DNA of 45,705 nucleotides from Bacteroidales bacterium (GCA_029932195.1 JAOZQN010000002.1:1-45705), one strand, 5' to 3'; counted from the first letter of the stretch, positions 13,971 to 31,619 are shown. Notes: generated from the sequence alone by a model not told the origin. Program-made: numbers and translations.

Positions 13971-13971
13971 T

Positions 13972-15009
13972 ATGTCTAAAAAAATAGCAATAATTGGAGC
14001 TGGAAATAGTGGCTTGACAATGGCAGCATATCTATCTAAACACAAACACGATGTAAGCATTTGGAACAGAAGCAGTAATAACATTTCAGAATTAATAAAA
14101 AACAAAACTATTAAAATTTCTGGGATAATTAATGGTGAATTTGCTATATCGGAAGTTGGTTTAAGTTTAGAAAAAACAGTTAAAAATGCTAAGTGGATTT
14201 TTATCACAACACCTGCCAATTCTCATAAAGAAATTTTGATAAAACTGTCAAAATATGTTGAACCACAATCAATTGTAATTTTATCGCCTGGACGAACCTT
14301 CGGAATTATTGAGGCAGAAAAAATATTTTCAAAAAATAATAAGAATAATATTATAGCAGAATCACAAACAATTGTTTTTACTTGTAGAAAAATTACTGAA
14401 AGAAATGTAAATTTGATAAAAATAAAAAATAATGTTCTGCTTTCTACTAAAAAAATTGAAGATACTCATCAAATTATCAATGACTTACCAGACTGTTTGA
14501 AAAACTCTTTTAAAATAGCAAATTCATTTTTAGAGACTTCACTTGGTAATGTGGGAATGATTTTGCATGTTGCACCATTATTATTGAATATTGGTTGGGT
14601 AGAAAGCGATAACACAAAATTCAAATATTATTATGAAGGTATAACTCCTTCTGTAGCAAGACTATTACAAAAATTAGATGACGAAAGATTAGAAGTAGCA
14701 AAAAAATTAAATTTTAATATAATTTCGTTAATAGATTGGTTTGCTGAATCTTATAATGTAAAAGCAAATAATATTTATGATTGTATAAAAAAAACAGATG
14801 CTTACAACGACATTGATGCACCTAAAACACTTCAACACAGGTATCTATACGAAGATGTTTCTACGGGATTAGTCCCTTTGGCATATATTGGCAAACAACT
14901 TGGATTAGACTTAAAAATAACAAATTTAATTATAGATTTGGCATCAGAAGTATTAAATTATAATTTTCGACAAAACGGTAGAAAAATTAACTTAACAGAT
15001 TTATTTTGA
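13972..15009 (+). CDS. NAD(P)-dependent octopine/nopaline (opine) dehydrogenase family protein
   Basis: N-terminal Rossmann motif IAIIGAGNSGLTMAAYL. The C-terminal helical domain pattern NVGMILHVAPLLLNIGWVE...YYYEGITPSVARLLQKLDDERL is typical of the Octopine_DH family. Confidence 0.75.
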   Translation: MSKKIAIIGAGNSGLTMAAYLSKHKHDVSIWNRSSNNISELIKNKTIKISGIINGEFAISEVGLSLEKTVKNAKWIFITTPANSHKEILIKLSKYVEPQSIVILSPGRTFGIIEAEKIFSKNNKNNIIAESQTIVFTCRKITERNVNLIKIKNNVLLSTKKIEDTHQIINDLPDCLKNSFKIANSFLETSLGNVGMILHVAPLLLNIGWVESDNTKFKYYYEGITPSVARLLQKLDDERLEVAKKLNFNIISLIDWFAESYNVKANNIYDCIKKTDAYNDIDAPKTLQHRYLYEDVSTGLVPLAYIGKQLGLDLKITNLIIDLASEVLNYNFRQNGRKINLTDLF

Positions 15010-16205: not shown

Positions 16206-16217
16206 AAAAACTTCTTA

Positions 16218-17660
16218 ATGTCATATAAAAACAAAACAGTTTTTGCATTAAAATGGGTTTCTGGAATGCAGGCTTATATTTTTTTAAGCAGGTTTATTAT
16301 AAATCTTATTCTTGCAAAATTATTGCTACCAGAAGATTTTGGACTTGTGGCAATTGTGGTTATTATTACCGAAGTGCTTACAGCCGTTGCCGATTTAGGA
16401 TTTAATGCTGCAATCATTCAAAAAAAAGAAATTTCAAAAGGCGACATCAACACCGCTTTTTTGTTAAATACTGTGCTTTCGCTGTTTTTAACAATAGCAG
16501 TATTCTTTTCAGCTAGCTTAATTTCAGGATTTTATAACGACATTAGGTTAGAACCATTAATTCAATTATTGTCAATAATATTATTTGTTAGAGCCATAAC
16601 TTCGGTGCAAATAGCAATAGCAGACAGAAATTTAAACTTCAAAAAAGTAGTTTTAATCACAGGAATTGCAATAACGGTGAGTTCTATTGTCAAAGTTGTG
16701 TTAGCATTTTTAGATTTTGAAGCTAAAAGTATTGTGATTGGAGAAATAGTAAACCATTCAATAATTTCTATATTATTCTGGATAACAACAACTTGGAAAC
16801 CATCTTTAAAATTTGTAAATAAAGACAGTTTTAAAAAATTATTTTCATTTGGCTCAAAAATAATGCTAACAAACACTCTTAGTTTGATAAGTCAAAAAAT
16901 TGATATACTGTTAATTGGAAAACTCGTATCAGCATCTCTTGTAGGCATCTATTCTTTTTCATTTATGCTTTCTACTGTTTTAGCGGCTTTTATTAATGCA
17001 ATTGTCCGGCGAGTAATTTTCCCAAGTTTTTCAAGAATACAAGAAAATGATAAAAATATCCAAACCTTATATTTAGATGCTGTTAAATTTATTTCCATAA
17101 TTAGTGTGCCTGCTTCGGTAGGATTATTTTTTATTGCTCCCGAATTTGTGAAATTATTTCTCAAAACAGAATGGAACGAGGCAGTTATTATTATTCAAAT
17201 TTTAAGTATTTTTGGAATATCAAACTCATTGGGAGGTGTGCTTTGGGGACAAGTATTAAAAGCTAAAGGACGACCAGCTATGGTGCTGATAATGACAATA
17301 ATACGATTGATTTCTTTAACTATTTTTATCTTTATTGGCTCAAATTGGGGCATAATTGGAATTGCCACTTCTGTTGCAATTTATGGTTGGATTTTCAGAT
17401 TTGTTTACCAACACATAATAAATAAAATAATAAAAATATCAATGTTAGACTATCTTAAAGCTCTAAAAAACACTACATTAGCCTCAATAACAATGGCAAC
17501 AGTTTTGTTTTTTATTAGACTTTTGAATAATTCTATTTTTATTAATGATATTTTTCTTTTTGTAATAATTATTGTTGCAGGAATTTTAAGTTATGGTTTT
17601 ATACATTGGACTTTTTTTAAATCTGACATAAAAAAAATAATTTCTACAATAAAAAAATAG
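16218..17660 (+). CDS. wzx: Wzx-type oligosaccharide flippase (polysaccharide biosynthesis protein, MOP superfamily)
   Basis: 480 aa with ~12-14 TM helices; N-terminal pattern W......Q...F....IL.R.L.P.DFG is typical of Wzx. The last base of the TAG stop codon is the first base of MITE copy B. Confidence 0.8.
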   Translation: MSYKNKTVFALKWVSGMQAYIFLSRFIINLILAKLLLPEDFGLVAIVVIITEVLTAVADLGFNAAIIQKKEISKGDINTAFLLNTVLSLFLTIAVFFSASLISGFYNDIRLEPLIQLLSIILFVRAITSVQIAIADRNLNFKKVVLITGIAITVSSIVKVVLAFLDFEAKSIVIGEIVNHSIISILFWITTTWKPSLKFVNKDSFKKLFSFGSKIMLTNTLSLISQKIDILLIGKLVSASLVGIYSFSFMLSTVLAAFINAIVRRVIFPSFSRIQENDKNIQTLYLDAVKFISIISVPASVGLFFIAPEFVKLFLKTEWNEAVIIIQILSIFGISNSLGGVLWGQVLKAKGRPAMVLIMTIIRLISLTIFIFIGSNWGIIGIATSVAIYGWIFRFVYQHIINKIIKISMLDYLKALKNTTLASITMATVLFFIRLLNNSIFINDIFLFVIIIVAGILSYGFIHWTFFKSDIKKIISTIKK

Positions 17661-17782
17661 GCGTTTTTCACGGGTGCCAATTTCAAGGCTTTTTTGTAAT
17701 TTTAGAATTGAAGTTTACCCTTGTAAATGAGCATTTTAAAATTTCAAAAGTAACGCCGAAATTGGCACTCGTGAAAAACGCC
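17660..17782 (-). mobile_element. 123-bp MITE-like element, copy B (near-perfect 24-bp terminal inverted repeats)
   Basis: TIRs ggcgtttttcacgggtgccaattt / aaattggcactcgtgaaaaacgcc match at 23/24 positions. Perfect 8-bp direct repeat AAAAAATA at 17652..17659 and 17783..17790. Inverted relative to copy A. Confidence 0.8.
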
Positions 17783-17806
17783 AAAAAATAAAATGATTTA
17801 TTTATA

Positions 17807-19144
17807 ATGCAAGTTTTTATCCCAAACAACTTTCTCCCAGAAAGAAAATATATAATTGAGATTTTAATTCATAATTTTCTTGGATTAAAATATGAGATAA
17901 GTTTTCATAACAAAAAATCGTATGTTTTTTTATTAGAAAATAAAAATAAATTAGTTTTTAAAGATGCTTTTTTTTCTAATTTTGAAGAAAGAAACGGTTA
18001 TTTATCTGGAAATAATTTGCCTGAAAAAGTAAAATTTTCGGAAAATAAATTTACATTAGAAAATGATATTCCAATTATTTTTGGCAACAAAAAAACAGAT
18101 ATTTCTGATACCGAAATAATTTGTGAAAATGATATTTTTGCCAGTTCATTTTTTATGCTAACTCGTTGGGAGGAACTGGTTATTAAAGATAAAGATAACC
18201 ATAATAGATTTCCAGAAGAACTATCTTTTTCTATAAAAAATAAAATCCATTTCCGACCAATTGTAAACGAATACGTAGAAATGCTTTGGAATATGCTCAA
18301 ATTTTTAGGCATATCTCAAAAAAGGAAGGAGAAGAAATATGAAGCCATTATTACTCACGATATTGACTTTATAAAAAGATATGATAAATTTTCAAAATTA
18401 ATAAAAGCAATTGGTGGAGATATTCTTTTAAGAAAAAATCCTTTTTTGATACCAAAAACTAAAAAAAATTATATAGATATAAAAAAAGGAAAAGAGAATG
18501 ATTTATACGATACTTTTGATTATTTGATGGATATTTCGGAAAAAAATAAAATAAAATCTCGCTTTTATTTTATTCCTGGAATGCTTGGAGAAAAAGATGT
18601 TAGATATAATATTACCAATAATTTTGTATCAGAAATTACAAAAAAAATATTAGACAGGGGACATATTGTGGGTTTGCATGGAACTTACGATAGTTATAAT
18701 TTACCCGAAAAATTTACGACTGAATTAGAGCGATTAAAAAAAATAACACCCGAAATAACAGAAGGTAGGCAACACTATTTAAGATTTGAAAATCCTACAA
18801 CTTGGCAAATTTGGGAGCAAAACAACTTACTATACGACAGCACAATAGGGTATTCAAAAGATGGGGGGTTTAGAGCAGGAATTTGCTACGAATATCCAAT
18901 TTTTGATCTAATTGAACGAAAACGATTAAACTTAATAGAACGTCCATTAATTGTTATGGAAGGAGCAATAAAATCATCTTATCCAGAACCAAAACTTTTT
19001 TATGATAAAATAATTGAATTAAAGAATATTGTAAAAAAATATAATGGTAAATTTGTCTTCCTTTGGCACAATAGTAATTTTAATACAGAGGAATGGCTTA
19101 CTTATAAAAAAAAATATTCACAAATAATTGCAGAAATAGTATGA
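17807..19144 (+). CDS. polysaccharide deacetylase-like (NodB-fold-like) protein with an uncharacterised N-terminal domain
   Basis: 445 aa. ITHDIDF and GLHGTYDSY motifs resemble divergent carbohydrate-esterase/deacetylase family members found in capsule loci. The assignment is tentative. Confidence 0.4.
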   Translation: MQVFIPNNFLPERKYIIEILIHNFLGLKYEISFHNKKSYVFLLENKNKLVFKDAFFSNFEERNGYLSGNNLPEKVKFSENKFTLENDIPIIFGNKKTDISDTEIICENDIFASSFFMLTRWEELVIKDKDNHNRFPEELSFSIKNKIHFRPIVNEYVEMLWNMLKFLGISQKRKEKKYEAIITHDIDFIKRYDKFSKLIKAIGGDILLRKNPFLIPKTKKNYIDIKKGKENDLYDTFDYLMDISEKNKIKSRFYFIPGMLGEKDVRYNITNNFVSEITKKILDRGHIVGLHGTYDSYNLPEKFTTELERLKKITPEITEGRQHYLRFENPTTWQIWEQNNLLYDSTIGYSKDGGFRAGICYEYPIFDLIERKRLNLIERPLIVMEGAIKSSYPEPKLFYDKIIELKNIVKKYNGKFVFLWHNSNFNTEEWLTYKKKYSQIIAEIV

Positions 19145-20349
19145 TCGTTTTTATTTATATTTTATTTCTATATTCTGGGCTGTTAAAATCAGTATTTTTA
19201 TTCTACAACATAGAATTACCTATTGATATTACTCTTATAACAGCTTGTTTATTAGTTATTTCCTTTTTTATTGATGTTTGGAAAAATAATTTTAAAGTTA
19301 AATTGAATAAAACAACTTTATTTGTTATTAGCTCAATATTGTTATTCTTTTTTTGGATTTTATTTACATTAATATATAGTCCTTCTGAAAAATATAGTTT
19401 TATTAAATCATTTTATTTTACTACTAATATTTTAACACTATTTTTCCCTTTATTAATTAGTAATTTTAATGTTAAAAAATTTATTAAATTTAGTCTTTTT
19501 TCTTCTCTATCCATTGCCATTTGGTATTTTTGGGTAGATTTTAATTCCAGTTCTTATATTTATAAATCTATTCAATATCAAATATATAGCTCACTTTATT
19601 TAACTATTTCAGGAGTATTAGGTGTAAATTTTCTAATTTTATTAACCACTAAATCTATTCTTTTTAACAAAAAAATATATGATACTATTTTAATTATTAT
19701 TACCCTATCTTTTATGTTGTTGATAAGAGGTAGAGGTCCTTTGTTGTTTGCAATTATTATTGCATTTATCTATTTTTCATATAAATTATTATCAGCAAAA
19801 AAAATTAATCTGAAAATTAATCTGAACAGAGTTATTTTTGCACTGTTTTTAATTGTTGGCTTCTCTATAATTATAACTATCTTATTATTACAGTTTAATG
19901 AACAAATATTAGCAATGCTAAATAAAACATTTTACAGATTTGCTGTTATTTTTTCAGGACTAGGAACTAGTGACATGGGAAACTCTGTAAATACAAGGGT
20001 GGATCATATTTATTTTTCCAAAGAATTGATATTAGACAATTTTACTAATTTTATTGGAGGCTATGGTATAGGGAGTTATGGAATATTATATTTAGGTATA
20101 GACCAAAGAACTTATCCACATAATATTATTTTAGAAATAATGGTAGAATTAGGAATAATTGGTTTAATATTATTTAGTATATACCTGTTTTTTAACCTTT
20201 TTTATCGGAAACAAAAAAACCAATATATTTCATCTTTTGTAATATTTTATTTAATCTTAAATATGTTAAAATCAAGTTCTTTGGTTGATTTAAGAATGTA
20301 TTTTGCTATATTTGCAATGTTCTTAATTATTAATACTAAGGCAAATTAA
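19141..20349 (+). CDS. O-antigen polymerase (Wzy)-like membrane protein
   Basis: 402 aa, ~10 TM helices, low-complexity hydrophobic sequence. The periplasmic-loop motif R..H.....E......GYGIGSY......YPHN..LE is typical of Wzy/O-antigen ligase proteins. Its ATGA overlaps the upstream gene. Confidence 0.6.
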   Translation: MIVFIYILFLYSGLLKSVFLFYNIELPIDITLITACLLVISFFIDVWKNNFKVKLNKTTLFVISSILLFFFWILFTLIYSPSEKYSFIKSFYFTTNILTLFFPLLISNFNVKKFIKFSLFSSLSIAIWYFWVDFNSSSYIYKSIQYQIYSSLYLTISGVLGVNFLILLTTKSILFNKKIYDTILIIITLSFMLLIRGRGPLLFAIIIAFIYFSYKLLSAKKINLKINLNRVIFALFLIVGFSIIITILLLQFNEQILAMLNKTFYRFAVIFSGLGTSDMGNSVNTRVDHIYFSKELILDNFTNFIGGYGIGSYGILYLGIDQRTYPHNIILEIMVELGIIGLILFSIYLFFNLFYRKQKNQYISSFVIFYLILNMLKSSSLVDLRMYFAIFAMFLIINTKAN

Positions 20350-20490
20350 AACTAATAATTAGCCATTTAAACTTGTTCTTTTTCCATTTAACTGCTTCAA
20401 AAAAAGATTAAATATTCCCGATATTCTCATATTCTTTTGAATTGTTAAAGAAAAAAATAACTTCGTTTAAATTGGCTAATTATTAATTTT
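20348..20490. repeat. 143-bp palindromic intergenic element
   Basis: Arms aaaactaataattagccatttaaac (20348..20372) and gtttaaattggctaattattaatttt (20465..20490) are complementary apart from one mismatch and one indel. The interior is also partly self-complementary. Confidence 0.7.
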
Positions 20491-20516
20491 AGTTTGCCTA
20501 AAAAAACATCTTATTT

Positions 20517-21614
20517 ATGAAAAAAATATGTCATCTCACATCAGTTCACCCACGTTACGATACTCGTATTTTTATAAAAGAATGCCAAAGTTTGCAAAAA
20601 GCAGGCTTTGATGTAAGCCTAATTGTGGCAGATAATAAAGGTGATGAGACTAAAAATAATATAAAAATTTATGATGTAGGAACTGAACCTACAAGAGGAA
20701 AAAGAATGCTCAAAACTCCAAAAAAAGTATATGAAAAAGCATTAGAAATTGATGCAGATATTTATCATTTTCACGACCCAGAACTAATTAATACAGGTGT
20801 AAAACTATTAAATTTAGGAAAAAAAGTAATTTACGATGTTCACGAAGACGTGCCTCGTCAGATTTTGAGCAAACCTTATTTAAAATCATTTATGAAACCA
20901 CTTGTCTCAAATGGTTTTGAAAAATATGAAAATAAAAATGCAAAAAAATTCTCACATATAATAACTGCAACAGATTTTATTACAGACAGGTTCTTGAAAG
21001 TAAATAAAAACTCATCTTCAATAAAAAATTATCCAAAAATAGACGAACTAAAATTAGATATTTCGTGGAAAGATAAAAAAAATAGAGCTTGTTATATTGG
21101 TTCAATATCTAAAGTTAGAGGTATTTCTGAAATAGTGCAAGCAATGCAATATTCTGATTATCAGATAAATCTTGCAGGAAAATTTAATGATAAAAATTTA
21201 GAAAATGAAACAAAAATTTTACCTTCGTGGGAAAAAATAATTGAACATGGATTTGCTAACAGAGAACAAATAAAACAAATATTACAAGAATCAAAAGTTG
21301 GACTTGTAACATTATATCCTACAATTAGTTATAAAGATGCCTTACCCGTAAAAATGTTTGAATATATGCTTGCAGGAATTCCTGTAATTTCTTCAAACAT
21401 AGAACTTTGGAGGCAAATTGTGGACGATGCCAATTGTGGAATATGTGTAAACCCATACGAGCCAAAAGAAATAGCAGAAGCAATAAATAAAATAATTGAA
21501 GACGATAAACTCTCAGAAGAAATGGGAAGAAATGGACAAAAAGCAGTTTTAGAAAAATATAATTGGAAAAATGAAGAGCAAAAACTAATAGAAATATATA
21601 CTAATTTAATTTAA
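20517..21614 (+). CDS. family 4 glycosyltransferase (GT-B)
   Basis: 365 aa. N-terminal KICHLTSVHPRYDTRIF and the C-terminal E-x7-E region (PVKMFEYMLAGIPVISS) are typical of GT4. Confidence 0.8.
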   Translation: MKKICHLTSVHPRYDTRIFIKECQSLQKAGFDVSLIVADNKGDETKNNIKIYDVGTEPTRGKRMLKTPKKVYEKALEIDADIYHFHDPELINTGVKLLNLGKKVIYDVHEDVPRQILSKPYLKSFMKPLVSNGFEKYENKNAKKFSHIITATDFITDRFLKVNKNSSSIKNYPKIDELKLDISWKDKKNRACYIGSISKVRGISEIVQAMQYSDYQINLAGKFNDKNLENETKILPSWEKIIEHGFANREQIKQILQESKVGLVTLYPTISYKDALPVKMFEYMLAGIPVISSNIELWRQIVDDANCGICVNPYEPKEIAEAINKIIEDDKLSEEMGRNGQKAVLEKYNWKNEEQKLIEIYTNLI

Positions 21615-21676
21615 AATTCAAAAAAATTAAAACTTCTTTAAATAATTAAATTTTTGGTTATTTTATAGAGTTAATT

Positions 21677-21684
21677 TACATTTG
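21677..21684 (+). promoter_or_regulatory. -7 promoter box (TAcaTTTG)
   Basis: Exact TAnnTTTG match 29 nt upstream of the ATG at 21713. Confidence 0.45.
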
Positions 21685-21712
21685 CAAAATAAGAAATTTG
21701 ATTAAAAATAAA

Positions 21713-22267
21713 ATGCAAAATAAAACAGACCTTTCTAAATACAACAACAGCTCTTACAATCCTGGTAAAAATGTGATTGTTAGAATTTTATGGTATTATA
21801 TAAATATAATATTTTTCAAAAACTCGTTTAATACTTTAAATTTTACCAAAGTTTTTTTGCTAAAATTATTTGGAGCAAAAATAGGACAAGGAGTTGTTAT
21901 TAAACCTTCTGTAAATATTAAATATCCTTGGCGATTGCAAATAGGCAACCACGTCTGGATAGGCGAAAATGCTTGGATAGATAATCTTGCAGATGTAAAA
22001 ATTGGCGACAATTGTTGTATTTCGCAAGGTGCAATGTTGCTCACAGGTAGCCATGATTATTCTAAAACAACTTTTGATGTAATCACTGGTGAAATTATTT
22101 TAGAAGATGGAGTTTGGATAGGAGCAAAAAGCATTGTTTATCCAGATATTATTTGTAAATCACACTCCCTTTTGGGAGTAAATTCTGTTGCAACTAAAAA
22201 ATTAGACCCATATTTTATTTATCACGGAAATCCTGCTGTTAAAATTTCAAAACGAACTGTAAAATGA
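21713..22267 (+). CDS. WcaF-like hexapeptide-repeat O-acetyltransferase
   Basis: N-terminus (LSKYNNS.YNPGK...R.LWY..N..FF) is like colanic-acid WcaF. Left-handed beta-helix hexapeptide repeats (IGNHVWIGENAWIDNLADVKIGDNCCIS). The ORF track starts at a TTG (21698); the ATG at 21713 is preferred. Confidence 0.8.
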   Translation: MQNKTDLSKYNNSSYNPGKNVIVRILWYYINIIFFKNSFNTLNFTKVFLLKLFGAKIGQGVVIKPSVNIKYPWRLQIGNHVWIGENAWIDNLADVKIGDNCCISQGAMLLTGSHDYSKTTFDVITGEIILEDGVWIGAKSIVYPDIICKSHSLLGVNSVATKKLDPYFIYHGNPAVKISKRTVK

Positions 22268-22947
22268 AACAAAAAATAAGAAATTTTGTATTTAAGAACT
22301 CTCATTTAATTGGAAGTAAGCTATCTGCAAAATTTATTAGATTAGGATATTTAATAGAATGTTCTAAATGGTATAAAAAATATAACGCACCTGTTTTTGC
22401 AGAAAGAAAAGAAATGTATAATTTTCTAATTGAAAAAGAAAGCTTAATTTCTAACGAAATATGTTATATGGAATTTGGGGTTTCAAAAGGTTGGGGATTT
22501 CATTTTTGGTATCAAACAAATAAGCATAAAAGTTCGCAATTCTTTGGTTTTGATACATTTGAAGGAATACCAGAAGACTGGGGTAGTGTTAAAAAAGGAG
22601 CTTATACTGCCGAAGGAAAAATTCCAACAGTTGCAGACCCCCGTTGTAAATTTATTGTAGGACTTTTTCAAGATACAATAGATGAATTCATCAAAAATAA
22701 TGAGCTAAACAAACGTAATGTAATACTTTTTGATGCAGGTTTATATAATGCCACTTTATTTGTTCTTCTTAAACTTCAAAATAATTTAAAAGCAGGAGAT
22801 ATTATTATTTTTGATGAATTCTTCTCTGTTTCAAAAGCCGACCATGAAATGAGAGCTTTTATCGATTTTCTTTCATTATATAAAATTAATTTTGAAGTGA
22901 TAGCAAAAACACTGACTCAAATTACAATAAAAATAAAAGATGAATAA
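22264..22947 (+). CDS. TylF/MycF-like class I SAM-dependent methyltransferase
   Basis: MEFGVSKGWG, FGFDTFEGIPEDW, VGLFQDT and ILFDAGLYNAT...GDIIIFDEF follow the macrocin-O-methyltransferase family block order. Confidence 0.6.
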   Translation: MKQKIRNFVFKNSHLIGSKLSAKFIRLGYLIECSKWYKKYNAPVFAERKEMYNFLIEKESLISNEICYMEFGVSKGWGFHFWYQTNKHKSSQFFGFDTFEGIPEDWGSVKKGAYTAEGKIPTVADPRCKFIVGLFQDTIDEFIKNNELNKRNVILFDAGLYNATLFVLLKLQNNLKAGDIIIFDEFFSVSKADHEMRAFIDFLSLYKINFEVIAKTLTQITIKIKDE

Positions 22948-24871
22948 ATCTGAACAATTATATTATCAAGCACTTTTAATCCGCCAAGTAGAAAATAAAT
23001 TTCTGCAACTTTTTTCGGAAGGAAAACTTAATGGAACAGTTCATACATCTGTTGGACAGGAGTTTACGGCAGTCGCTTTTGCAGGACAATTAGAAAAATC
23101 GGATTTTATTTTTTCCAATCATCGCTGTCATGGACATTATATTTCGTTTACAGATGACATTAAAGGACTTTTAGCAGAACTAATGGGCAAGGAACAAGGG
23201 ACTTGCGGAGGTGTTGGAAGTAGTCAGCATTTGTGCGAAGGCAATTTTTTTTCAAATGGTATTCAGGGAGGAATTGTGCCAGTTGCAGCAGGTTTTGCTC
23301 TTGCTAACAAGCTGAAAGACAATGGCAATATTGGCATTGTTTTTATTGGAGACGGCACGCTTGGAGAAGGGGTGCTTTATGAAACGATGAATATTATTTC
23401 TAAATGGAAAATTCCAGTTATGATTGTTTGCGAAAATAATTTGTATGCACAATCTACACATCAATCGACAAACTTGGCTGGTGATATTCTAAAACGTGCA
23501 GAAGCATTTGATATTAAGACTTTTAAATCGGATACTTGGCAAGTTGAAGATTTAATGAAAAATGCAAAACAGTCAATTGATTTTGTTCGAAAAAATCAAA
23601 AACCAGCATTTCATCTTGTTGATACTTACAGACTTAACGCACATTCAAAAGGAGACGATGATAGAGAACAATCTGAAATTAATAAATATCAAGAAATTGA
23701 CCCAATAAATATTTTTTCAAAAACGAATCCAGAATTATTTAATAATTATTTAAAGGAAATAAATCAAAAAATAAATCAAATTGTTAAAAATTTAGAAGAA
23801 CTTCCAGAATTAAGTATTGATAATTATTATACAAAAGAAACAGAACAAAAAGAATACGAATGGACTAATTTAGAGGAAATAAACAAGCGTCAGGTTCAAT
23901 TGCTGAACGAGTTTTTTAAGGAAAAAATGAGCCAAGATAAAAAATTGGTTTTTATTGGTGAAGACATTTTAAGTCCTTATGGTGGAGCGTTTAAAGTTGC
24001 AAAAGATTTATCTTTTGAATTTCCTAAAAATGTATTTTCTACGCCAATTAGTGAGGCGGCAATTACAGGCATTGGCAACGGATTAGCACTCGCAGGCACA
24101 AAACCGTTTGTGGAAATTATGTTTGGCGATTTTATAACACTTGCCTTAGACCAGATAATTAATCATGCCTCCAAGTTTTATCATATGTATAACAAGCAAA
24201 TAGCTTGCCCTGTGGTAATTAGAACTCCAATGGGAGGAGGACGTGGCTACGGTCCTACGCATTCGCAAACTTTGGATAAATTGCTAATAGGTATTGATAA
24301 TGTGAAAACTATCGCATTAAATACACTCACGAATCCAAAAGAAATTTACAACTCCATTTATACCGAAAATCACCCAGTTATTGTTATTGAAAATAAAATT
24401 GATTACGGTAAAAAAATCAATAAAAATAAAATTGCTAATTATAAATATTTAAAATCTTCTCATAAATATCCTATAATTAAGGCTTTACCTGTTGTTTCTG
24501 AACCTACTGCTACAATTGTAACCTACGGAGGTATGGCAAATGTTGTTTTAAATAGTGTCAAAAATATTTTTAAAGAAACAGAGTTAAAACCTGAAATCTT
24601 AATTTTATCAAAAATTAATCCTATTGATTATCTACCAATTATAGCATCGGTAAACAAAACAGGACGTTTATATGTTGTAGAAGAAGGTAGCACTACGGGA
24701 GGTATTGGTAGTGAGATAATTGCAAAAATATCTGAAGTAGTAGAAAGAAAAATTATTTGTAGAAGAATTGGAGCAATGCCTGTTCCTATTCCAGCCGTTA
24801 AATCATTAGAAACAGAAGTTTTACCATCAGAAAAATTAATTCTTTCGGAAATAAAAAAAACAATAAAATGA
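22940..24871 (+). CDS. TPP-dependent 2-oxoacid dehydrogenase E1 component, fused alpha/beta subunits
   Basis: 643 aa. The alpha part carries the TPP motif GDG-x26-NN (GDGTLGEG...VCENN). The beta part has the transketolase-like pyrimidine-binding pattern (FIGEDI..PYGGAFKV...FSTPISEAAITGIGNGLA). Confidence 0.85.
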   Translation: MNKSEQLYYQALLIRQVENKFLQLFSEGKLNGTVHTSVGQEFTAVAFAGQLEKSDFIFSNHRCHGHYISFTDDIKGLLAELMGKEQGTCGGVGSSQHLCEGNFFSNGIQGGIVPVAAGFALANKLKDNGNIGIVFIGDGTLGEGVLYETMNIISKWKIPVMIVCENNLYAQSTHQSTNLAGDILKRAEAFDIKTFKSDTWQVEDLMKNAKQSIDFVRKNQKPAFHLVDTYRLNAHSKGDDDREQSEINKYQEIDPINIFSKTNPELFNNYLKEINQKINQIVKNLEELPELSIDNYYTKETEQKEYEWTNLEEINKRQVQLLNEFFKEKMSQDKKLVFIGEDILSPYGGAFKVAKDLSFEFPKNVFSTPISEAAITGIGNGLALAGTKPFVEIMFGDFITLALDQIINHASKFYHMYNKQIACPVVIRTPMGGGRGYGPTHSQTLDKLLIGIDNVKTIALNTLTNPKEIYNSIYTENHPVIVIENKIDYGKKINKNKIANYKYLKSSHKYPIIKALPVVSEPTATIVTYGGMANVVLNSVKNIFKETELKPEILILSKINPIDYLPIIASVNKTGRLYVVEEGSTTGGIGSEIIAKISEVVERKIICRRIGAMPVPIPAVKSLETEVLPSEKLILSEIKKTIK

Positions 24872-26139
24872 AAATTTTACAAGAAATAAAAGTCCCTCAA
24901 GAATCGGTAAACGACGAATTTATTTCGATTGTAGATATTCTTTTTAATGATGGAGAATTTGTTGAAGAGGGCGATATTTTAATTGAATTAGAAACCTCAA
25001 AAGCAGTATTTACTATTGAAAGTGAGGTAGATGGATACGTTCATTATCTTTGTAAAAATGAAGACGAAGTTGCCGTAAACTCAATTATTATCAAAATCTT
25101 TGATGAGTATGACGCTAAAGAACTATCAGAAATCTCAAATGTATCTGACAGTTTTGAAATTTCTAATATTTCGGAAACATTTTTTTCTGAAAAAGCAAAT
25201 CAGTATATTATTGAAAATAAGATTGATAAATCAAAATTTCTTCATCTTGATTTTGTTAACACAGCCGATATTTTTAATATTTTAGGAATAAATAAAAAAG
25301 AAAAAACTGTAGTTCCAATTCAAAAAAGAGAAGACAAAACTGAAATAGTTGATGAAAGCAAAGTTATTCTTGAAAATTTATCTAAAAATAAAAAAAGAGA
25401 AATAGAATATCTAAAAGCTGTTCAAAAAGAGAACCTTAACAGCACCGTAAATATAAATATTGATACAAAAAATATTTTTGTGAAGATAAATCCTCATCTT
25501 AAATATTTTAAAAATTCGCTTCTGCCAATAATCATTTTTGAAACAGCTCGATTATTAAAAAAACATCCAGAATTTAATTCTTATTTTGTTAATAATCAGA
25601 TTGCTATTTACAACGAAATAAATATTGGACTTGCGATTGATATGGATTTAGGTTTAAAAACAGTAAAGATTCCAGATACTATTTCAAAAACAATTCAAGA
25701 AACGGAGCAACTAATTTTTGATTTATCAAACAAATATATTGATAATAAATTACAAATAACCGACCTAACAGATATTACGTTCACAATCACCGACTTATCT
25801 TCGGAAGGAGTAGATTTTTTTGTTCCACTTATCAATAAAAATAATGCTGCAATACTTGGAATTTCGGCAGATGACAAAAAATTAAATCGCACAACTTTGA
25901 GCCTCACTTTTGATCACAGAATTACTGCCGGAAAAAAAGCTACCATATTTTTGAGAGAACTAAAAAAGAGAATAGAAAGTTACAAACAACAAAATATCAA
26001 CGAAATAGATACATCAATAAAATGTTTTAAATGTATGAAATCGTTGAAAGATGATTTTAATGAAGTTGGTTTTTTAAAAACAACTATTAAAAGTGGTGAG
26101 GAAAAATATATTTGTCAAACTTGTTTTACAGGATTTTAA
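24868..26139 (+). CDS. 2-oxoacid dehydrogenase E2 acyltransferase (lipoyl domain + catalytic domain) with a C-terminal Cys4 tail
   Basis: Lipoyl-lysine motif ELETSKAVFTIES. Catalytic motif LTFDHRITAGKKA (family consensus DHR..DG). The extra tail is CFKC-x27-CQTC. Its ATGA overlaps E1. Confidence 0.75.
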   Translation: MKILQEIKVPQESVNDEFISIVDILFNDGEFVEEGDILIELETSKAVFTIESEVDGYVHYLCKNEDEVAVNSIIIKIFDEYDAKELSEISNVSDSFEISNISETFFSEKANQYIIENKIDKSKFLHLDFVNTADIFNILGINKKEKTVVPIQKREDKTEIVDESKVILENLSKNKKREIEYLKAVQKENLNSTVNINIDTKNIFVKINPHLKYFKNSLLPIIIFETARLLKKHPEFNSYFVNNQIAIYNEINIGLAIDMDLGLKTVKIPDTISKTIQETEQLIFDLSNKYIDNKLQITDLTDITFTITDLSSEGVDFFVPLINKNNAAILGISADDKKLNRTTLSLTFDHRITAGKKATIFLRELKKRIESYKQQNINEIDTSIKCFKCMKSLKDDFNEVGFLKTTIKSGEEKYICQTCFTGF

Positions 26140-26150
26140 AATTTCAACAA

Positions 26151-26876
26151 ATGAAAAACGAATACACTGATATAAAGAATATTATATCTGCATTTATAAA
26201 AAAAACAGCAGAGCAAATCACAGAAAATACAGTTATTGATAAAACTGTTGTTCAAGGCTCAATTCTTATACACAGAATGTATGCAGAAATTGCAGATATT
26301 GGCTATAGTATTGATAATTATAATGATATAAAAACTTATGCTGACTTATTACAAAAAATAAATCCAGAAAATAATATTATAATTCAAAAAAATATTACTG
26401 TAAATTTAGAAGATAAAAACACCTCAAGTAATAATTCTGTAGGTATTGATATTGAGCAAGTATCAAATTTTAAAGAAGTAAATGATTATCGTGAAGATAA
26501 TTTTTACAAACAAAATTTTACAGAACAAGAAATAGCTCATTGCTTATTACAGCCAAGTATGTTACAGAGTTTTACAGGGAAATTTGCAGCAAAAGAAGCA
26601 ATTGTTAAAGCAGATAATTCTTATAAAAAATTATCTTTTAATCAAATTGAAATTTCAAATGATACCGAAGGAAAACCATTATTCCACGATTTTCATATTT
26701 CCATAAGCCATACCAACGACTTGGCAATAGCGGTAGCAATTCAAATAAAAGAACCTGAAAAAACTGAAACAGTTATAACTCAAACAAATAACAACTCTGT
26801 AAGTAAATATTTATCAATAGGAGCTTTTATTGTTTCAATTATTGCGTTGGGGCTAACTGTTTCTCAGCTATTTTAA
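26151..26876 (+). CDS. carrier-protein-like domain fused to an AcpS-type 4'-phosphopantetheinyl transferase, with a C-terminal TM anchor
   Basis: The N-terminal ~75 aa have an ACP/PCP-like helix pattern with a candidate Ser in VVQGSILIHRMYAEI. The middle has AcpS motifs (VGIDIEQV, FTEQEIAHC, FAAKEAIVKA, ISISHT). The C-terminus is hydrophobic (YLSIGAFIVSIIALGLTV). The ATG at 26151 is preferred over the TTG at 26112. Confidence 0.6.
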   Translation: MKNEYTDIKNIISAFIKKTAEQITENTVIDKTVVQGSILIHRMYAEIADIGYSIDNYNDIKTYADLLQKINPENNIIIQKNITVNLEDKNTSSNNSVGIDIEQVSNFKEVNDYREDNFYKQNFTEQEIAHCLLQPSMLQSFTGKFAAKEAIVKADNSYKKLSFNQIEISNDTEGKPLFHDFHISISHTNDLAIAVAIQIKEPEKTETVITQTNNNSVSKYLSIGAFIVSIIALGLTVSQLF

Positions 26877-26879
26877 AAC

Positions 26880-27617
26880 ATGAAAATCTCAATAATAACT
26901 GCCACCTACAACAACGAAAAAACTATTGCAGATACCTTATATGCAGTTAGTTCGCAAACTTATGCCAATATTGAACACATTATTATTGATGGAAAATCTA
27001 CCGACAATACTCTCAAAATAATTAACGAAAACAATCCTAAATTAAAAATTTTCAGCGAAAAAGATAATGGAATTTATGATGCTCTAAATAAGGGGATTAA
27101 ACATGCAACTGGTGATATTATTGGTTTTCTACATGCCGACGATATCTATGCAAATAATACAACAATTGAAAATATTGCAAAAGTTTTTGCAACAAAAAAT
27201 CCTGATTCTATTTACTCTGATTTACATTATGTTGCACAAATAGATGTGAATAAAATAATTCGTAATTGGCAATCTGGAGAATTTGAATATTTTAAGTTGA
27301 AAAAAGGTTGGATGCCACCCCACCCTACTTTTTTTGTGAAAAAAGAAATTTACAATAAATTCGGAAATTTTAACACCAACTACAAAATTGCTGCCGACTA
27401 CGATTTAATGATGAGATTTCTTGGAAAACATAAAATATCAGTTGCCTATCTACCAGAAGTTACTGTAAAGATGAGAGTTGGAGGCGAAAGTAACAAAAGC
27501 CTCAAAAATATTATCAAAAAAATGAAAGAGGACTATAAAGTTGTAAAAACTAACAAAATTGGTGGAATTTTTACTCTATTAAAAAAAAATACTTCTAAAA
27601 TTTCGCAGTTTTTCTAA
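26880..27617 (+). CDS. family 2 glycosyltransferase (WcaE-like)
   Basis: ISIITATYNNEKTI...SQTY.NIEHIIIDG.STDNT and the HADD motif are classic short GT2 features. Confidence 0.8.
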   Translation: MKISIITATYNNEKTIADTLYAVSSQTYANIEHIIIDGKSTDNTLKIINENNPKLKIFSEKDNGIYDALNKGIKHATGDIIGFLHADDIYANNTTIENIAKVFATKNPDSIYSDLHYVAQIDVNKIIRNWQSGEFEYFKLKKGWMPPHPTFFVKKEIYNKFGNFNTNYKIAADYDLMMRFLGKHKISVAYLPEVTVKMRVGGESNKSLKNIIKKMKEDYKVVKTNKIGGIFTLLKKNTSKISQFF

Positions 27618-27840
27618 CAGTTATGGTAAAATAAATAATGTAGATAAATTAAAATAATAACTTATATTAGATTTATAAAAGCGAACTTACTGTTAAAAAA
27701 TACTAAAATAAACAAACCAGCCTTCCTTTAAAACAATAATTTACAGTCTTTTAAATACACAAAAAAAATATTAAGCTTTTAAGACAATAAACAGTAGAGA
27801 CAAAAATATCTTTTTTATTTAAAATTTCATAAAAATTAAT

Positions 27841-27848
27841 TACATTTG
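27841..27848 (+). promoter_or_regulatory. -7 promoter box (TAcaTTTG) upstream of the R-M gene
   Basis: Exact TAnnTTTG match in the 384-bp AT-rich spacer, ~150 nt upstream of the ATG at 28002. Confidence 0.35.
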
Positions 27849-28001
27849 CAGATTGTAGAATTAGAAATATGATTATGTTTTCTTTATTCTATATTACTAA
27901 CAATAAAACTATTAAACATTAGTAAGGTTTAATCTAATTTGTGAAAATATATTCTAAATTTAGAAATATAGGAAAACTTAAAACATTAACACTTCCTTAT
28001 T

Positions 28002-31000
28002 ATGAAAAACATCAACCTAATAAAAAAATTGAATTTCTTGCCAAAAGAAAATTCAACAGGGATATATACTAAAACATATTCTAATTGTGGTAATTATATA
28101 ATTGAGGTAGATTTTGAAAACGAAAATTTTAATTACGGCAATTTAATTTCTTCCGAAAGCAAAACTACGCAAAATTTTTCGCAAGCAGAAAACTGGGTTG
28201 TATTTGAATGTGTTGATAGACTTCTTGAAAAAGGATACAAACCTAACGATATTACACTCGAAAAAACCTTTCCTTCTGGACACGGACATTCGGGCAGATT
28301 AGATATTTTAGTAGAAAAAGAAGGCAAAGCATTTTTGATGATAGAATGCAAAACGTATGGAAAAGAATTTGACAAAGGATTAAAAAACATACACAAAAAC
28401 GGAGGTCAGCTTTTTACTTATTTTCAGCAAGATACAAATACAGATATTCTGATGCTTTACACATCTGAGCTTCAAGATGGTAAGTTAGAATTTAAAAATG
28501 AAATTATAAAAGTTGAAGAACATTACAAAAAAGCTACTAATGTTGAAGATTTTCATGATCGCTGGAATAAAATTAGTAACCAAACAGGAATTTTCGACGA
28601 ATGGGTTTCTGCTTATCAGTTTAAAAATCAACTTTTAAGAAAAAAAGATTTAACACCAATTTCAGAAAAAGATAGTGGGTTTATTTTTCATCAATTTGCA
28701 GCCATTTTACGTAAACATTCCGTTTCAGATAAACCAAATGCGTTTAATAAAATTTTTAATCTTTTTTTAGCAAAAATATTTGATGAAAAAAAGAAAGACA
28801 ACGATGTTCTTGAATTTCAATGGAAGGAAAATGAAGATGACGATGTCGATTTTCAAGTTCGTTTAATAAACTTGCATAAAAAAGGAATGCAAGCTTTTCT
28901 ACAAAAGGAAGTAGAAGGTATTGACGATGAAGATTTCAACTATAAAACAGTAGAAAAATTAAAAGCATTACGAAAGAAAATATTAAAATTTAATAATGTT
29001 TTTGCAATAAAGGAAGTTATTGATGATGAGTCTTTTGAAGATAATGCAAAAGTTTTAAAAGAGGTTGTTGAATTACTTAAAAAATATCAAATACGCTATC
29101 CAAGACGACAGCAACATTTGAGCAATTTCTTTGAAAGACTGCTAACAACTGGTTTAAAACAAGAGTCTGGACAATTTTTTACGCCCATACCAATTGCTAA
29201 ATTTATCATAAAGTCTTTGCCCATAAAAAATACAATAGAAAAAATACTTTCGGAAAATGAAATACCAGAACTCCCTACATTTATTGATTATGCCGCAGGA
29301 AGTGGTCATTTCCTTACCGAAACAATGGAAGAAATCCAAAATATTATTGATAATACTAATACAGCAGATTTTTATCCTGATGTGCAGCAACAAGTTGAAA
29401 TTTGGAAAATACAAAAATACAACTGGGCTGCAAAATATATTTATGGTATAGAAAAAGATTACCGTTTGGTAAAAGTAGCAAAAGTTGGTTGTTATTTTTA
29501 CGGCGACGGTTTAGCACAAGTTATTCATGGCGACGGACTGGATAGTTTTTATAACTCAAATTCATACAGAGGTTTACTAAAACAACAAAAACAAAACAAC
29601 GAACTTAAAAAGTTTGATTTTATTATTTCAAACCCACCTTACTCTGTTCAAAATTTTAAGGGAGATATTAAAAATAATAATGTAAAAGATGAATTTAAAA
29701 TTTATAAATATCTAACCGATAAAAGTAAAGAAATTGAAAGCCTGTTTATTGAAAGAACAACGCAATTGCTTAAAATTGGCGGAATTGCAGGAATTGTTTT
29801 ACCAAGCAGTATATTAAGCAATGGAGGAATTTATCAAAAAGCAAGAGAACTAATTTTAATTGATTTTGAAATTATAGCCATAACAAAACTTGGTTCAAGT
29901 ACCTTTATGGCTACTGGAACAAATACCGTTGTTTTATTTTTAAAAAAGCGAAAACCACAAATTTCAGTAGATACAAAAGAGTCGGTAGATATAATTTTTG
30001 ACACACTGAAAAACAATACTGTAAATGGAATTGAAACTCCTGTAAGCAAATACCTTACACACGTTTGGGAAAGCATTAGTTTTGATGATTACAAAACATT
30101 GATACAAAAAAATGCAAACGATTCAATTACACAACACGAAATTTATCAAGATTATATAAAAAAAATAAAAGCCAAAAATACAAAAGAAAAATTACAAAAA
30201 ATTATAGATTTAGAAAAAGAGAAACTCTTTTATTTTATTCTTGCTTATCCGCAAAAGGTAGTTTTGATAAATACAGGAGATAAAAAAGCAGAAAAACAAT
30301 TTTTGGGTTACGAATTTAGCAATCGACGAGGAAGCGAAGGCATACACCCCATACAAAGGGGCAAATTAATAGAAGAATGCACACAATTATTTGATGCCAA
30401 CAAATTTGAAAACCCTGAAAAAGCAAGCACATATATTTATCAAGCGTTTAACGGAAAATTAGACTCTGAAATACCCGAGAACTTACAAAAAAATATTTCT
30501 CGCATTGATTTAGTAGATATGCTCACTTTTGACAGAGTGGATTTTGATAAAGACATTTCACTTTCTGCTAAAAAAAAAATAAAAATTGAAAGTAAATGGG
30601 AATTAGTTAGATTAGGTGAATTCATATTTGAACAAGCAAAATCTAAAATAAAAGTTGGGACTGCCAAAGACTCAATAAATGGGAATTATCTATTTTTCAC
30701 AAGTGGAGAAAATATTTTAAAATATACAGATTACTTAGTTGATAAAGAGAACATTTATTTATCAACAGGAGGAAATGCAATTGTAAAATATTATAATGGT
30801 AAAGCATCATACTCTACTGATACTTTTGCTATTAAAAGTAATAATGAATTAAAATTAAAAACAAAATTTCTATATTATTTCATAGAAAATATCATTCATT
30901 TAGTTAATGAATTTTATTTTAAAGGTGTTGGATTAAAACATTTACAAAAAACAGATCTTAGAAATATAAAAATTCCTCTACCTCCCAAAAAAATACAAGA

Positions 31001-31619
31001 AAAAATAGTTTCCGAAATTGAAGTTTTGGAAATAGAAGAAGGAAAGGCGAGAACTAAAGCAGAGAAGTTAAAAAGTGAAATTTCAGAAATAGTTGCAACT
31101 GTTTCTGAAAATGATAAAATAAAAAAGCTAAGAGAAGTATGTGAAATGAGAGCTGGTAAATTTGTTTCTGCTTCAAATATTATTGATAAAAACAACAATG
31201 AACTATACCCTTGTTATGGAGGTAATGGACTTCGAGGTTATACTGAAACATATACACATGAAGGTAATTTTTCCCTTATTGGACGGCAGGGTGCATTAAG
31301 TGGAAATATTCATTTAGTATCTGGTAAATTTCATGCAACAGAACATGCAGTAGTTGTAACTACTGTTGATGAGGTCAATGTAAATTGGTTAAATTATCAG
31401 TTAATAAAAATGAATTTGAATCAATATGCAAAAGGAACTGCACAACCTGGTCTTACAGTTTCTCATTTAAAAACTTTGTCTATTTCTGTTCCTCCTCTTC
31501 CCGAACAGCAAAAAATAGTTTCCAAAATAGAAACTATCGAAGCCAAAATTGAAAAATTAGAAAACGAAACTGCTCAAATACCAAAAGAGAAAGAAGCAAT
31601 TTTGAAAAAATACTTATAA
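28002..31619 (+). CDS. single-polypeptide restriction-modification-specificity enzyme (Type IIB/IIG-like; AloI/CjeI-type architecture)
   Basis: 1205 aa. N-terminal PD-(D/E)xK nuclease motif (GRLDILVE...FLMIECK). Gamma-class N6-adenine methyltransferase motifs (IDYAAGSGHF; IISNPPYS). Two HsdS-like target recognition domains separated by conserved helices (LPPKKIQEKIVSEIE; VPPLPEQQKIVSKIE). Confidence 0.85.
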   Translation: MKNINLIKKLNFLPKENSTGIYTKTYSNCGNYIIEVDFENENFNYGNLISSESKTTQNFSQAENWVVFECVDRLLEKGYKPNDITLEKTFPSGHGHSGRLDILVEKEGKAFLMIECKTYGKEFDKGLKNIHKNGGQLFTYFQQDTNTDILMLYTSELQDGKLEFKNEIIKVEEHYKKATNVEDFHDRWNKISNQTGIFDEWVSAYQFKNQLLRKKDLTPISEKDSGFIFHQFAAILRKHSVSDKPNAFNKIFNLFLAKIFDEKKKDNDVLEFQWKENEDDDVDFQVRLINLHKKGMQAFLQKEVEGIDDEDFNYKTVEKLKALRKKILKFNNVFAIKEVIDDESFEDNAKVLKEVVELLKKYQIRYPRRQQHLSNFFERLLTTGLKQESGQFFTPIPIAKFIIKSLPIKNTIEKILSENEIPELPTFIDYAAGSGHFLTETMEEIQNIIDNTNTADFYPDVQQQVEIWKIQKYNWAAKYIYGIEKDYRLVKVAKVGCYFYGDGLAQVIHGDGLDSFYNSNSYRGLLKQQKQNNELKKFDFIISNPPYSVQNFKGDIKNNNVKDEFKIYKYLTDKSKEIESLFIERTTQLLKIGGIAGIVLPSSILSNGGIYQKARELILIDFEIIAITKLGSSTFMATGTNTVVLFLKKRKPQISVDTKESVDIIFDTLKNNTVNGIETPVSKYLTHVWESISFDDYKTLIQKNANDSITQHEIYQDYIKKIKAKNTKEKLQKIIDLEKEKLFYFILAYPQKVVLINTGDKKAEKQFLGYEFSNRRGSEGIHPIQRGKLIEECTQLFDANKFENPEKASTYIYQAFNGKLDSEIPENLQKNISRIDLVDMLTFDRVDFDKDISLSAKKKIKIESKWELVRLGEFIFEQAKSKIKVGTAKDSINGNYLFFTSGENILKYTDYLVDKENIYLSTGGNAIVKYYNGKASYSTDTFAIKSNNELKLKTKFLYYFIENIIHLVNEFYFKGVGLKHLQKTDLRNIKIPLPPKKIQEKIVSEIEVLEIEEGKARTKAEKLKSEISEIVATVSENDKIKKLREVCEMRAGKFVSASNIIDKNNNELYPCYGGNGLRGYTETYTHEGNFSLIGRQGALSGNIHLVSGKFHATEHAVVVTTVDEVNVNWLNYQLIKMNLNQYAKGTAQPGLTVSHLKTLSISVPPLPEQQKIVSKIETIEAKIEKLENETAQIPKEKEAILKKYL

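Follow-up and report, generated by a model that had tools for sequence, protein, structure and literature searches.

A 45,705-nucleotide stretch of DNA from a Bacteroidales bacterium (GCA_029932195.1 JAOZQN010000002.1:1-45705, here called the window) contains, within a glycan locus, a cassette of three consecutive plus-strand genes at positions 22940-26876. They encode a single-chain E1 component, a lipoyl-bearing E2 component and a protein in which an acyl carrier protein (ACP)-like domain is fused to an AcpS-type phosphopantetheinyl transferase (PPTase) and a membrane-anchoring helix. Comparison of the cassette with its relatives strongly favours the view that E2 and the carrier form a functional unit linked to glycan acylation. 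We lean towards a specific form of this view, in which E1 and E2 would load an acyl group onto the phosphopantetheine arm of the carrier and a hexapeptide acyltransferase would then move that group to a sugar. Such a relay is supported by the strict synteny of the three genes, a dedicated carrier family, a natural fusion of E2, carrier and PPTase in one chain, a conserved hexapeptide partner and the absence of a dihydrolipoyl dehydrogenase (E3). The genes and their features, including the thiamine pyrophosphate (TPP) motif of E1, are as follows.

22940..24871, plus strand: E1 alpha-beta fusion, 643 aa (Pfam E1_dh, Transket_pyr, Transketolase_C)
about 22970-23725, plus strand: E1 alpha part (Pfam E1_dh 9e-44)
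23348-23440, plus strand: E1 TPP motif GDG-x26-NN, residues 137-167 (motif search)
23642-23644, plus strand: E1 active-site-loop His235
about 23900-24835, plus strand: E1 beta part (Transket_pyr 1e-25, Transketolase_C 3e-17)
24868..26139, plus strand: E2, 423 aa (Pfam Biotin_lipoyl, 2-oxoacid_dh)
24883-25098, plus strand: E2 lipoyl domain (Biotin_lipoyl 5e-12)
25000-25002, plus strand: E2 lipoyl Lys45 in ELETSKAV
about aa 102-139 of E2, plus strand: conserved linker segment of ~38 residues (alignment)
25375-25986, plus strand: E2 acyltransferase domain (2-oxoacid_dh 1e-35)
25789-25791, plus strand: E2 Thr308
25915-25917, plus strand: E2 catalytic His350 in FDHRITAG
26017-26136, plus strand: E2 C-terminal four-Cys tail (Cys386, Cys389, Cys416, Cys419), residues 384-423
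26151..26876, plus strand: carrier::PPTase::membrane-anchor protein, 241 aa (ACPS Pfam, TIGR00556, AlphaFold2 model)
26151-26375, plus strand: carrier domain (ACP fold, Ser37)
26259-26261, plus strand: carrier Ser37 in the S-I-x-x-H-R-M-Y motif
26436-26744, plus strand: AcpS-type PPTase domain (Asp100, Glu102, Lys148, Glu149, Lys153, His187)
26796-26870, plus strand: C-terminal transmembrane helix

A first-pass annotation of the window had placed the E1 start codon inside the preceding methyltransferase gene and an ATGA overlap between E1 and E2, and the coordinates of the open reading frames (ORFs) bear out both: the ATG at 22940 overlaps the end of the methyltransferase gene (stop codon 22945-22947) by 8 nt, and the ATGA at 24868-24871 is common to E1 and E2. 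Its reading of the first product as a single-chain, TPP-dependent E1 with a GDG-x26-NN motif agrees with the Pfam domains and with the motif at residues 137-167. The same holds for its lipoyl-bearing E2 (ELETSKAV; DHRITAG), given K45, H350 and the Pfam domains, and for its ACP-like domain joined to an AcpS-type PPTase, given the fold matches, the invariant Ser and the ACPS and TIGR00556 scores above cutoff that are described next. Two features had gone unremarked there, namely the C-terminal transmembrane helix of the third protein and the CxxC...CxxC tail of E2.

An alignment of 27 homologues resolves the third protein into three modules joined by variable linkers: a carrier-like module of ~70 residues, the PPTase and a hydrophobic helix. 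The AlphaFold2 model of the whole protein has a mean predicted local distance difference test score (pLDDT) of 87, with the linkers disordered. In the AlphaFold2 model the carrier helices span residues 6-16, 37-49 and 63-70, and Ser37 opens helix 2; modelled alone (pLDDT 86), the carrier domain finds only ACPs among its 50 best fold matches in the PDB (TM-scores 0.55-0.74). A carrier-domain profile compared with PDB sequences likewise returns ACPs as its three best matches, aligned over their full length with Ser37 on the ACP DSL serine. The S-I-x-x-H-R-M-Y motif with its Ser is retained in 114 of 120 homologues, the GIDIE motif of the PPTase in 119 of 120 and the C-terminal hydrophobic helix in 115 of 120. 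The PPTase itself appears complete: the motifs GIDIE, FAAKEA..K and ISHT are intact, and D100, E102, K148, E149, K153 and H187 are invariant. Its domain (residues 109-208 of the TTG-started ORF) scores 53 bits against PF01648 (cutoff 25) and 64 bits against TIGR00556 (cutoff 45), and its fold matches include bacterial AcpS as well as the best match, the PPTase domain of fungal fatty acid synthase (FAS; 2wat, E 1.4e-8). As the start of this protein the TTG at 26112 was rejected in favour of the likelier ATG at 26151, which lies 12 nt past the E2 stop, gives the 241-aa form found in the database (P0001) and agrees with gene spacing in relatives.

The H-R-M-Y of carrier helix 2 is invariant, and the family has a median isoelectric point of 6.6, versus ~4 for the acidic ACPs of fatty acid synthesis. 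Because the recognition helix carries a basic H-R pair, the isoelectric point is of this order and the domain lacks a Pfam PP-binding match, we read this as a carrier that is probably kept apart from fatty acid synthesis and tuned to partners of its own.

In E2, the Lys of E[TS]SK, the FDHR motif and all four tail Cys are invariant among 17 sequences. The invariant lipoyl Lys and FDHR His, together with a Sulfuricurvum cassette that brings its own lipoylation genes (described below), point to real lipoyl chemistry. The best NCBIfam equivalog score of the protein is 105 bits against a cutoff of 722, and Pfam E3_binding has no match in E2 even at E<=10. A profile of the conserved linker segment, which lies where a peripheral subunit-binding domain would be expected, aligns in register with that domain of Thermus 2-oxoglutarate dehydrogenase (OGDH; 2eq7_C), with E=1.7 only. 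The CxxC...CxxC tail stands where the short canonical C-terminus would be, and we speculate that it could serve as a docking element for the carrier protein. In canonical E2 cores the C-terminus mediates contacts between trimers. Since the Cys tail replaces that segment, E2 may be a free trimer, which would match the trimeric AcpS fold of its partner.

The E1 component lies nearer to pyruvate dehydrogenase (PDH) E1 than to branched-chain 2-oxoacid dehydrogenase (BCKDH) E1, both by NCBIfam and by comparison with the PDB. Its nearest NCBIfam models, neither of which reaches its cutoff, are those for the two PDH E1 subunits: alpha at 221 bits (cutoff 394) and beta at 186 bits (cutoff 321). Against the PDB, the beta part scores 130 bits with human PDH E1 beta, 122 with the BCKDH beta of Thermus and ~96-98 with those of human and Pseudomonas; for the alpha part the best score is 113 bits, versus 54-75 with BCKDH alpha. 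The best 120 E1 homologues are all at least 62% identical and reach other phyla. Identity among relatives is 61-82% for E1, 35-66% for E2 and 35-53% for the carrier protein, and because E1 is so much more conserved than its two partners, this pattern suggests that E1 may work on one fixed, common substrate.

No E3, LplA, LipB or LipA domain was detected in window ORFs of at least 100 aa, consistent with the earlier statement that the window lacks an E3 and a lipoate-attachment gene. Similarly, tblastn with E. coli Lpd (E<=1e-4) found no E3 homologue in the window and 105 further loci (1.09 Mb), a search that carries a little less weight than the Pfam scans made of the window. Taking E3, LipA and LplA together, tblastn over these 106 loci returned none but the lipoylation genes of the Sulfuricurvum locus (L087).

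A scan of genome contigs by full-length alignment returned mostly ordinary AcpS genes and only ~17 true relatives; the scan of metagenome contigs therefore used a query consisting of the carrier domain only. The profile of this domain matched only 259 cluster representatives among 1.84 billion proteins, and nearly all of the full-length ones are the same fusion. In the counts that follow, a locus is included only if its contig has room for the neighbour in question. The order E1-E2-carrier::PPTase, with overlaps or very short gaps, was found in 19/19 loci from genomes or long contigs, and among 80 metagenome loci E2 lies beside the carrier gene in 49/49 and E1 is present in 31/31. The first-pass annotation had proposed the co-occurrence of the three genes across glycan loci as a check, and they co-occur in every locus with room. 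It had also raised the prospect of an ordinary dehydrogenase cassette found mainly outside such loci with an adjacent E3; what we found were glycan loci, and the cassette was never beside an E3.

The neighbours of the cassette are conserved as well. A WcaF-type gene lies upstream in 28/31 metagenome loci and in 17/22 first-round loci (several of which are cut off by a contig end), and in 41/49 metagenome loci, as in the majority of genome loci, a small family 2 glycosyltransferase (GT2) gene lies downstream. Family 4 glycosyltransferase (GT4) genes precede the hexapeptide gene in loci L001, L002 and L004; tblastn of the window's own GT4 against these three loci gave no match at E<=1e-8. A methyltransferase gene occurs in the window, in locus L007 and in 2/31 metagenome loci; the TylF-like methyltransferase is an accessory gene outside the conserved module.

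Most hosts belong to the Bacteroidota (Chitinophagaceae, among them Niastella with the culturable Niastella caeni; Cyclobacteriaceae; a metagenome-assembled genome (MAG) labelled Draconibacterium; and Bacteroidales), with one Fibrobacterota MAG in addition. The window DNA here is ~27% GC and the closest named relatives of its cassette proteins are from Bacteroidota MAGs. In two cassettes from outside the Bacteroidota the Ser motif and membrane tail of the carrier protein are retained, as is the Cys tail of E2. In a Desulfobacteraceae MAG the gene order is GT4, E1, E2, carrier::PPTase, WcaF-family transferase, GT4 and WecA-like transferase. In a Sulfuricurvum sp. MAG (GCA_049305995.1, L087:3596-9523) the order is lipoyl synthase, a lipoate-ligase/octanoyltransferase-like gene, E1, E2, carrier::PPTase and a 106-aa AhpD-family protein; the lipoyl synthase scores 270 bits (cutoff 203), and both lipoylation genes overlap each other and E1. 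An AhpD-like fragment is also present 3' of the carrier gene on a short contig (L106:1200-1313). AhpD re-oxidises the mycobacterial E2, and a thiol oxidoreductase of this type might stand in for E3 in re-oxidising the dihydrolipoyl arm.

The fusion of all three functions in one chain is found in P0348 (625 aa), a natural E2::carrier::PPTase that has neither the Cys tail nor the membrane helix. It is encoded on a Logan SRR22388066 contig (L088:6067-11115), with E1 upstream and a GlmU-C-like hexapeptide transferase downstream. This contig is a conjugative element that carries TraH/TraF genes and Lamassu-type (LmuB_C) defence genes.

Transfer of an acyl group from lipoamide to a carrier has been described in antibiotic biosynthesis. 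Quinocarcin QncN, which binds thiamine diphosphate (ThDP, the same cofactor as TPP), is described as acting with QncL and the ACP QncM to attach a two-carbon (C2) glycolicacyl unit derived from a ketose phosphate (Peng et al. 2012, as cited in PMC6335953, PMC7570522 and PMC13249901). QncL is described as combining pyrimidine-binding, transketolase C-terminal, lipoyl and acyltransferase domains (PMC6335953), and QncN/QncL are called PDH-like. Described counterparts are NapB/NapD of naphthyridinomycin and SclQ1-4 with the PPTase SclP of scleric acid (PMC6335953, PMC13249901). As described, these systems resemble our cassette: a PDH-like ThDP E1, lipoyl and acyltransferase domains and a dedicated carrier are encoded together, with a PPTase also in the scl cluster, and no E3 is named among the cluster genes described, as none accompanies the cassette here. 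In the Qnc system the acyl group is described as passing from lipoamide to phosphopantetheine and not to coenzyme A (CoA); the same is proposed here. The arrangements differ, in that the Qnc fusion as described joins E1 beta, lipoyl and acyltransferase domains whereas our E1 alpha and beta form one chain and our E2 is a protein of its own, and in that our carrier is fused to an AcpS-type PPTase and a membrane helix and our E2 bears a four-Cys tail. The settings differ too: the Qnc system belongs to an actinomycete nonribosomal peptide synthetase (NRPS) pathway, whereas the present cassette lies in glycan loci of Bacteroidota and other Gram-negative bacteria with a hexapeptide acyltransferase as the likely consumer. 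Neither the window nor the related loci that were inspected contained NRPS or polyketide synthase genes; the neighbours there are glycosyltransferases, Wzx, Wzy and the hexapeptide acyltransferase. The comparison set the domain content and gene linkage of the cassette beside the published descriptions of Qnc and Scl.

The view of the first-pass annotation that coupling between E2 and an ACP was uncharacterised is thus at odds with the accounts of QncN/QncL/QncM and of SclQ1-4 with SclP (PMC6335953, PMC13249901); for the glycan setting no precedent was found, and a full-text literature search yielded no description of such a cassette in polysaccharide loci. The principle of E2-to-carrier transfer is already known from antibiotic biosynthesis, and it is in its glycan setting and its carrier::AcpS::membrane-helix architecture that the present system departs from that precedent. 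As for the central proposal of that annotation, that E2 passes an acyl group derived from a 2-oxoacid to the carrier, the transfer itself gains support from the co-occurrence of the genes, from glycan loci without E3, from the ACP fold with its invariant Ser and from the fusion; it is not new in principle, and a 2-oxoacid as the donor is not established because the Qnc precedent draws its C2 unit from a ketose phosphate.

On these grounds we propose the following sequence of events. The AcpS-type domain would take phosphopantetheine from CoA and place it on Ser37 of its own carrier domain. With TPP, the fused E1 would reductively acylate lipoyl-Lys45 of E2 with a short unit from a common metabolite; since E1 is closer to PDH E1 than to BCKDH E1 this unit is most likely C2, drawn from pyruvate, hydroxypyruvate or a ketose phosphate, and by analogy with Qnc it could be acetyl or glycolyl. 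The His350 domain of E2 would then pass the acyl group from dihydrolipoamide to the carrier thiol rather than to free CoA, and the C-terminal helix would hold the acyl-S-carrier at the cytoplasmic face of the membrane. There, between the flanking glycosyltransferase steps, the WcaF-family transferase would acylate a sugar of the lipid-linked repeat unit. LpxA and LpxD, which are related left-handed beta-helix enzymes, use acyl-ACP. Finally, the reduced lipoyl arm would be re-oxidised by the housekeeping E3, which we invoke because none is encoded with the cassette.

Several points weigh against this proposal. WcaF-family enzymes are known as users of acetyl-CoA, and it is gene linkage that suggests acyl-carrier use by the present subgroup. 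The E2 acyltransferase domain has the ordinary 2-oxoacid_dh fold and may still use CoA; its catalytic motif is DHR-x-T-A/E/S-G, variable after the catalytic His, versus the usual DHR-x-x-D-G. The PDB matches of the carrier-domain profile are marginal (E 0.5-0.8), and a Pfam PP-binding search of the domain (residues 1-100) gave no match. Without an E3 of its own the cycle would depend on an external oxidant. Next to the Sulfuricurvum cassette there is neither a hexapeptide nor a glycosyltransferase gene, and the link to glycans is therefore not universal.

The rival explanation that survives best, and that we consider unlikely, is that the cassette is a local acyl-CoA generator, an E3-sharing mini-dehydrogenase that feeds the WcaF-type transferase while the carrier::PPTase protein acts as scaffold, anchor or regulator. 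It accommodates the standard lipoyl and 2-oxoacid_dh domains of E2, the closeness of E1 to PDH E1 and the annotation of WcaF-family enzymes as acetyl-CoA-dependent, but it leaves unexplained why an invariant-Ser domain of ACP fold, fused to an intact PPTase, should stand beside E2 in 49/49 loci, and why the P0348 fusion exists. Moreover, the scores of E1 and E2 fall far short of all PDH, OGDH and BCKDH equivalog cutoffs, E3 is never adjacent, and cells already making acetyl-CoA would gain little from such a generator.

Less probable still is that E2 does load the carrier and the acyl group goes to a lipid, a small molecule or a protein, with the glycan locus and hexapeptide gene being frequent company. 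The WcaF-type gene upstream (28/31) and the GT2 gene downstream (41/49) argue against this, as does the recurrence of the same pairing in the Desulfobacteraceae glycan locus with its WecA-like initiating transferase. The cassette of Sulfuricurvum, beside lipoylation and AhpD-like genes and with neither glycosyltransferase nor hexapeptide gene, would fit a non-sugar target, and a membrane anchor suits a lipid target equally well. The L088 cassette could be counted on the same side for its place on a conjugative, defence-carrying element, but it still keeps a sugar-type (GlmU-C-like) hexapeptide transferase at its side.

PDH-like E1 genes occur in deoxysugar pathways, and the PDH-E1-like AviB1/AviB2 of avilamycin have been proposed as a carboligase. 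That E1 here is likewise a non-oxidative carboligase, adding a two-carbon branch from pyruvate to a keto-sugar with E2 and the carrier as accessories, would suit a cassette sitting among sugar-modifying genes, but we hold it to be very improbable, since the module shows no conserved association with the usual genes for keto-sugar formation and since the invariant lipoyl Lys, E2 catalytic His and carrier Ser, with a cassette-linked lipoyl synthase in one lineage, indicate oxidative acyl transfer via lipoamide.

The proposed acyl relay to the carrier can also be set against better known complexes. The cassette shares with the PDH, acetoin and BCKDH complexes the TPP motif, the E1 alpha and beta folds, the lipoyl-Lys domain and an E2 resembling chloramphenicol acetyltransferase with the DHR His. 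Unlike them it has a single-chain E1, a Cys tail, no recognisable E3-binding domain, no adjacent E3 and a carrier::PPTase gene that is always attached; every score falls far short of its NCBIfam equivalog cutoff, and the genes lie in a glycan locus. Judged by sequence, then, the cassette does not encode a PDH, BCKDH or acetoin complex of the ordinary kind. Carrier-dependent decoration of surface polymers is known from the D-alanylation of teichoic acids by DltA/DltC and from RfbK, the ACP of the tetronate side chain of Vibrio cholerae O1, whose carriers are small free proteins, loaded by adenylating enzymes or ligases and modified by the housekeeping AcpS. As in those systems, a dedicated phosphopantetheinylated carrier (here predicted) would feed an acyl or aminoacyl group to a surface glycopolymer; unlike them, the proposed loading is by a lipoyl E2 and the carrier is membrane-anchored and fused to its own PPTase. 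A carrier and an AcpS-type PPTase in one polypeptide are also found in the alpha subunit of fungal type I FAS, a huge multidomain synthase, whereas the present protein, 241 residues long, includes a membrane helix and lacks synthase domains.

A broader interpretation, which we offer tentatively and regard as possible, is that the cassette represents a widespread route of glycan decoration in which E1 and E2 turn a central metabolite directly into a non-acetyl acyl-S-carrier, for example glycolyl, on a carrier that is tethered to the membrane and primes itself, and in which a subgroup of WcaF-type enzymes uses acyl-carrier and not acyl-CoA. Evidence for an unusual (non-acetyl) acyl group, as had been suggested at the outset, was not found in this sequence-level analysis. 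If this interpretation is true, no earlier acyl relay from lipoamide to a carrier would be known outside secondary metabolism. If the relay itself works as we propose, lipoamide-dependent acyl transfer to a carrier would extend from a few actinomycete antibiotic pathways to the surface glycans of several Gram-negative phyla. Some WcaF-type 'acetyltransferases' would then draw their acyl group from a protein-bound thioester, and the S-I-x-x-H-R-M-Y carrier fused to AcpS would be a genomic marker for unusually acylated glycans. On the broader interpretation the cassette would further be a candidate source, at the genetic level, of hydroxyacyl groups on Bacteroidota glycans that have so far lacked an explanation: N-glyceroyl and possibly N-glycolyl are Bacteroidota glycan acyl groups of unknown genetic basis (PMC5378307), and any tie between those organisms and the cassette is conjectural. 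Acyl-carrier thioesters made directly from central metabolites are a possible use, and the system should be easy to study in vitro because its components are compact and self-sufficient and nature provides one E2::carrier::PPTase in a single chain.

In the window the cassette belongs to a series of plus-strand genes, packed with short gaps or overlaps, that runs from at least 16218 to 27617. Its other members are listed here.

starts 16218, plus strand: Wzx flippase
17807-19144, plus strand: VimE-like deacetylase (DUF7033 + polysaccharide deacetylase)
19141-20349, plus strand: Wzy (Wzy_C/O-antigen-ligase family)
20517..21614, plus strand: GT4 glycosyltransferase (Pfam Glycos_transf_1 and Glyco_transf_4)
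21698..22267, plus strand: WcaF-family left-handed beta-helix (hexapeptide) acyltransferase (NF007797 232 bits, cutoff 192)
22264..22947, plus strand: TylF-like methyltransferase (Pfam TylF and Methyltransf_24), between the acyltransferase and E1
26880..27617, plus strand: small GT2, WcaE-like, 245 aa (Pfam Glycos_transf_2)

Pfam and NCBIfam matches agree with the WcaF-like, TylF-like and GT2/GT4 neighbours named earlier. The WcaF-family gene (21698-22267) misses the colanic-acid WcaF equivalog cutoff (133 versus 326 bits), and the similarity of the GT2 (26880-27617) to WcaE is weak (75 bits versus a cutoff of 369). A promoter and terminator scan of 16000-28200 was uninformative, because its counts match the shuffled expectation in this AT-rich DNA.

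Other genes of the window deserve brief mention. The protein at 17807-19144 resembles VimE, a UDP-2,3-diacetamido-2,3-dideoxy-glucuronate deacetylase, at 146 bits (below the cutoff of 440), and hints at a diamino-uronic acid that is de-N-acetylated and then re-acylated. In the same operon, 12297-16205 encodes a 557-aa protein with a weak B12-binding-domain match only, an enzyme of the octopine/nopaline-dehydrogenase family and an ATP-grasp ligase, a set of products that could between them build an opine-type (N-carboxyalkyl amino acid) group and join it to a sugar through an amide bond. The locus has two membrane proteins of the Wzy_C/O-antigen-ligase family (10406-12304 and 19141-20349), one of them, with 632 aa, of unusual length. 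Between the glycan operon, which it follows directly, and ftsH lies a gene (28002-31619) for a 1205-aa single-chain restriction-modification protein; its N-terminus resembles an HSDR_N nuclease and is combined with an Eco57I-like N6 adenine methylase and a pair of type I specificity (Methylase_S) domains. Farther away, a 485-aa protein (37964-39421) unites the catalytic domain of an adenylate/guanylate cyclase with an HD domain, and at 235-2875 a small ORF of 157 aa with DsbD_N alone sits immediately upstream of a full DsbD-like protein comprising DsbD_N, a transmembrane domain and a thioredoxin domain.

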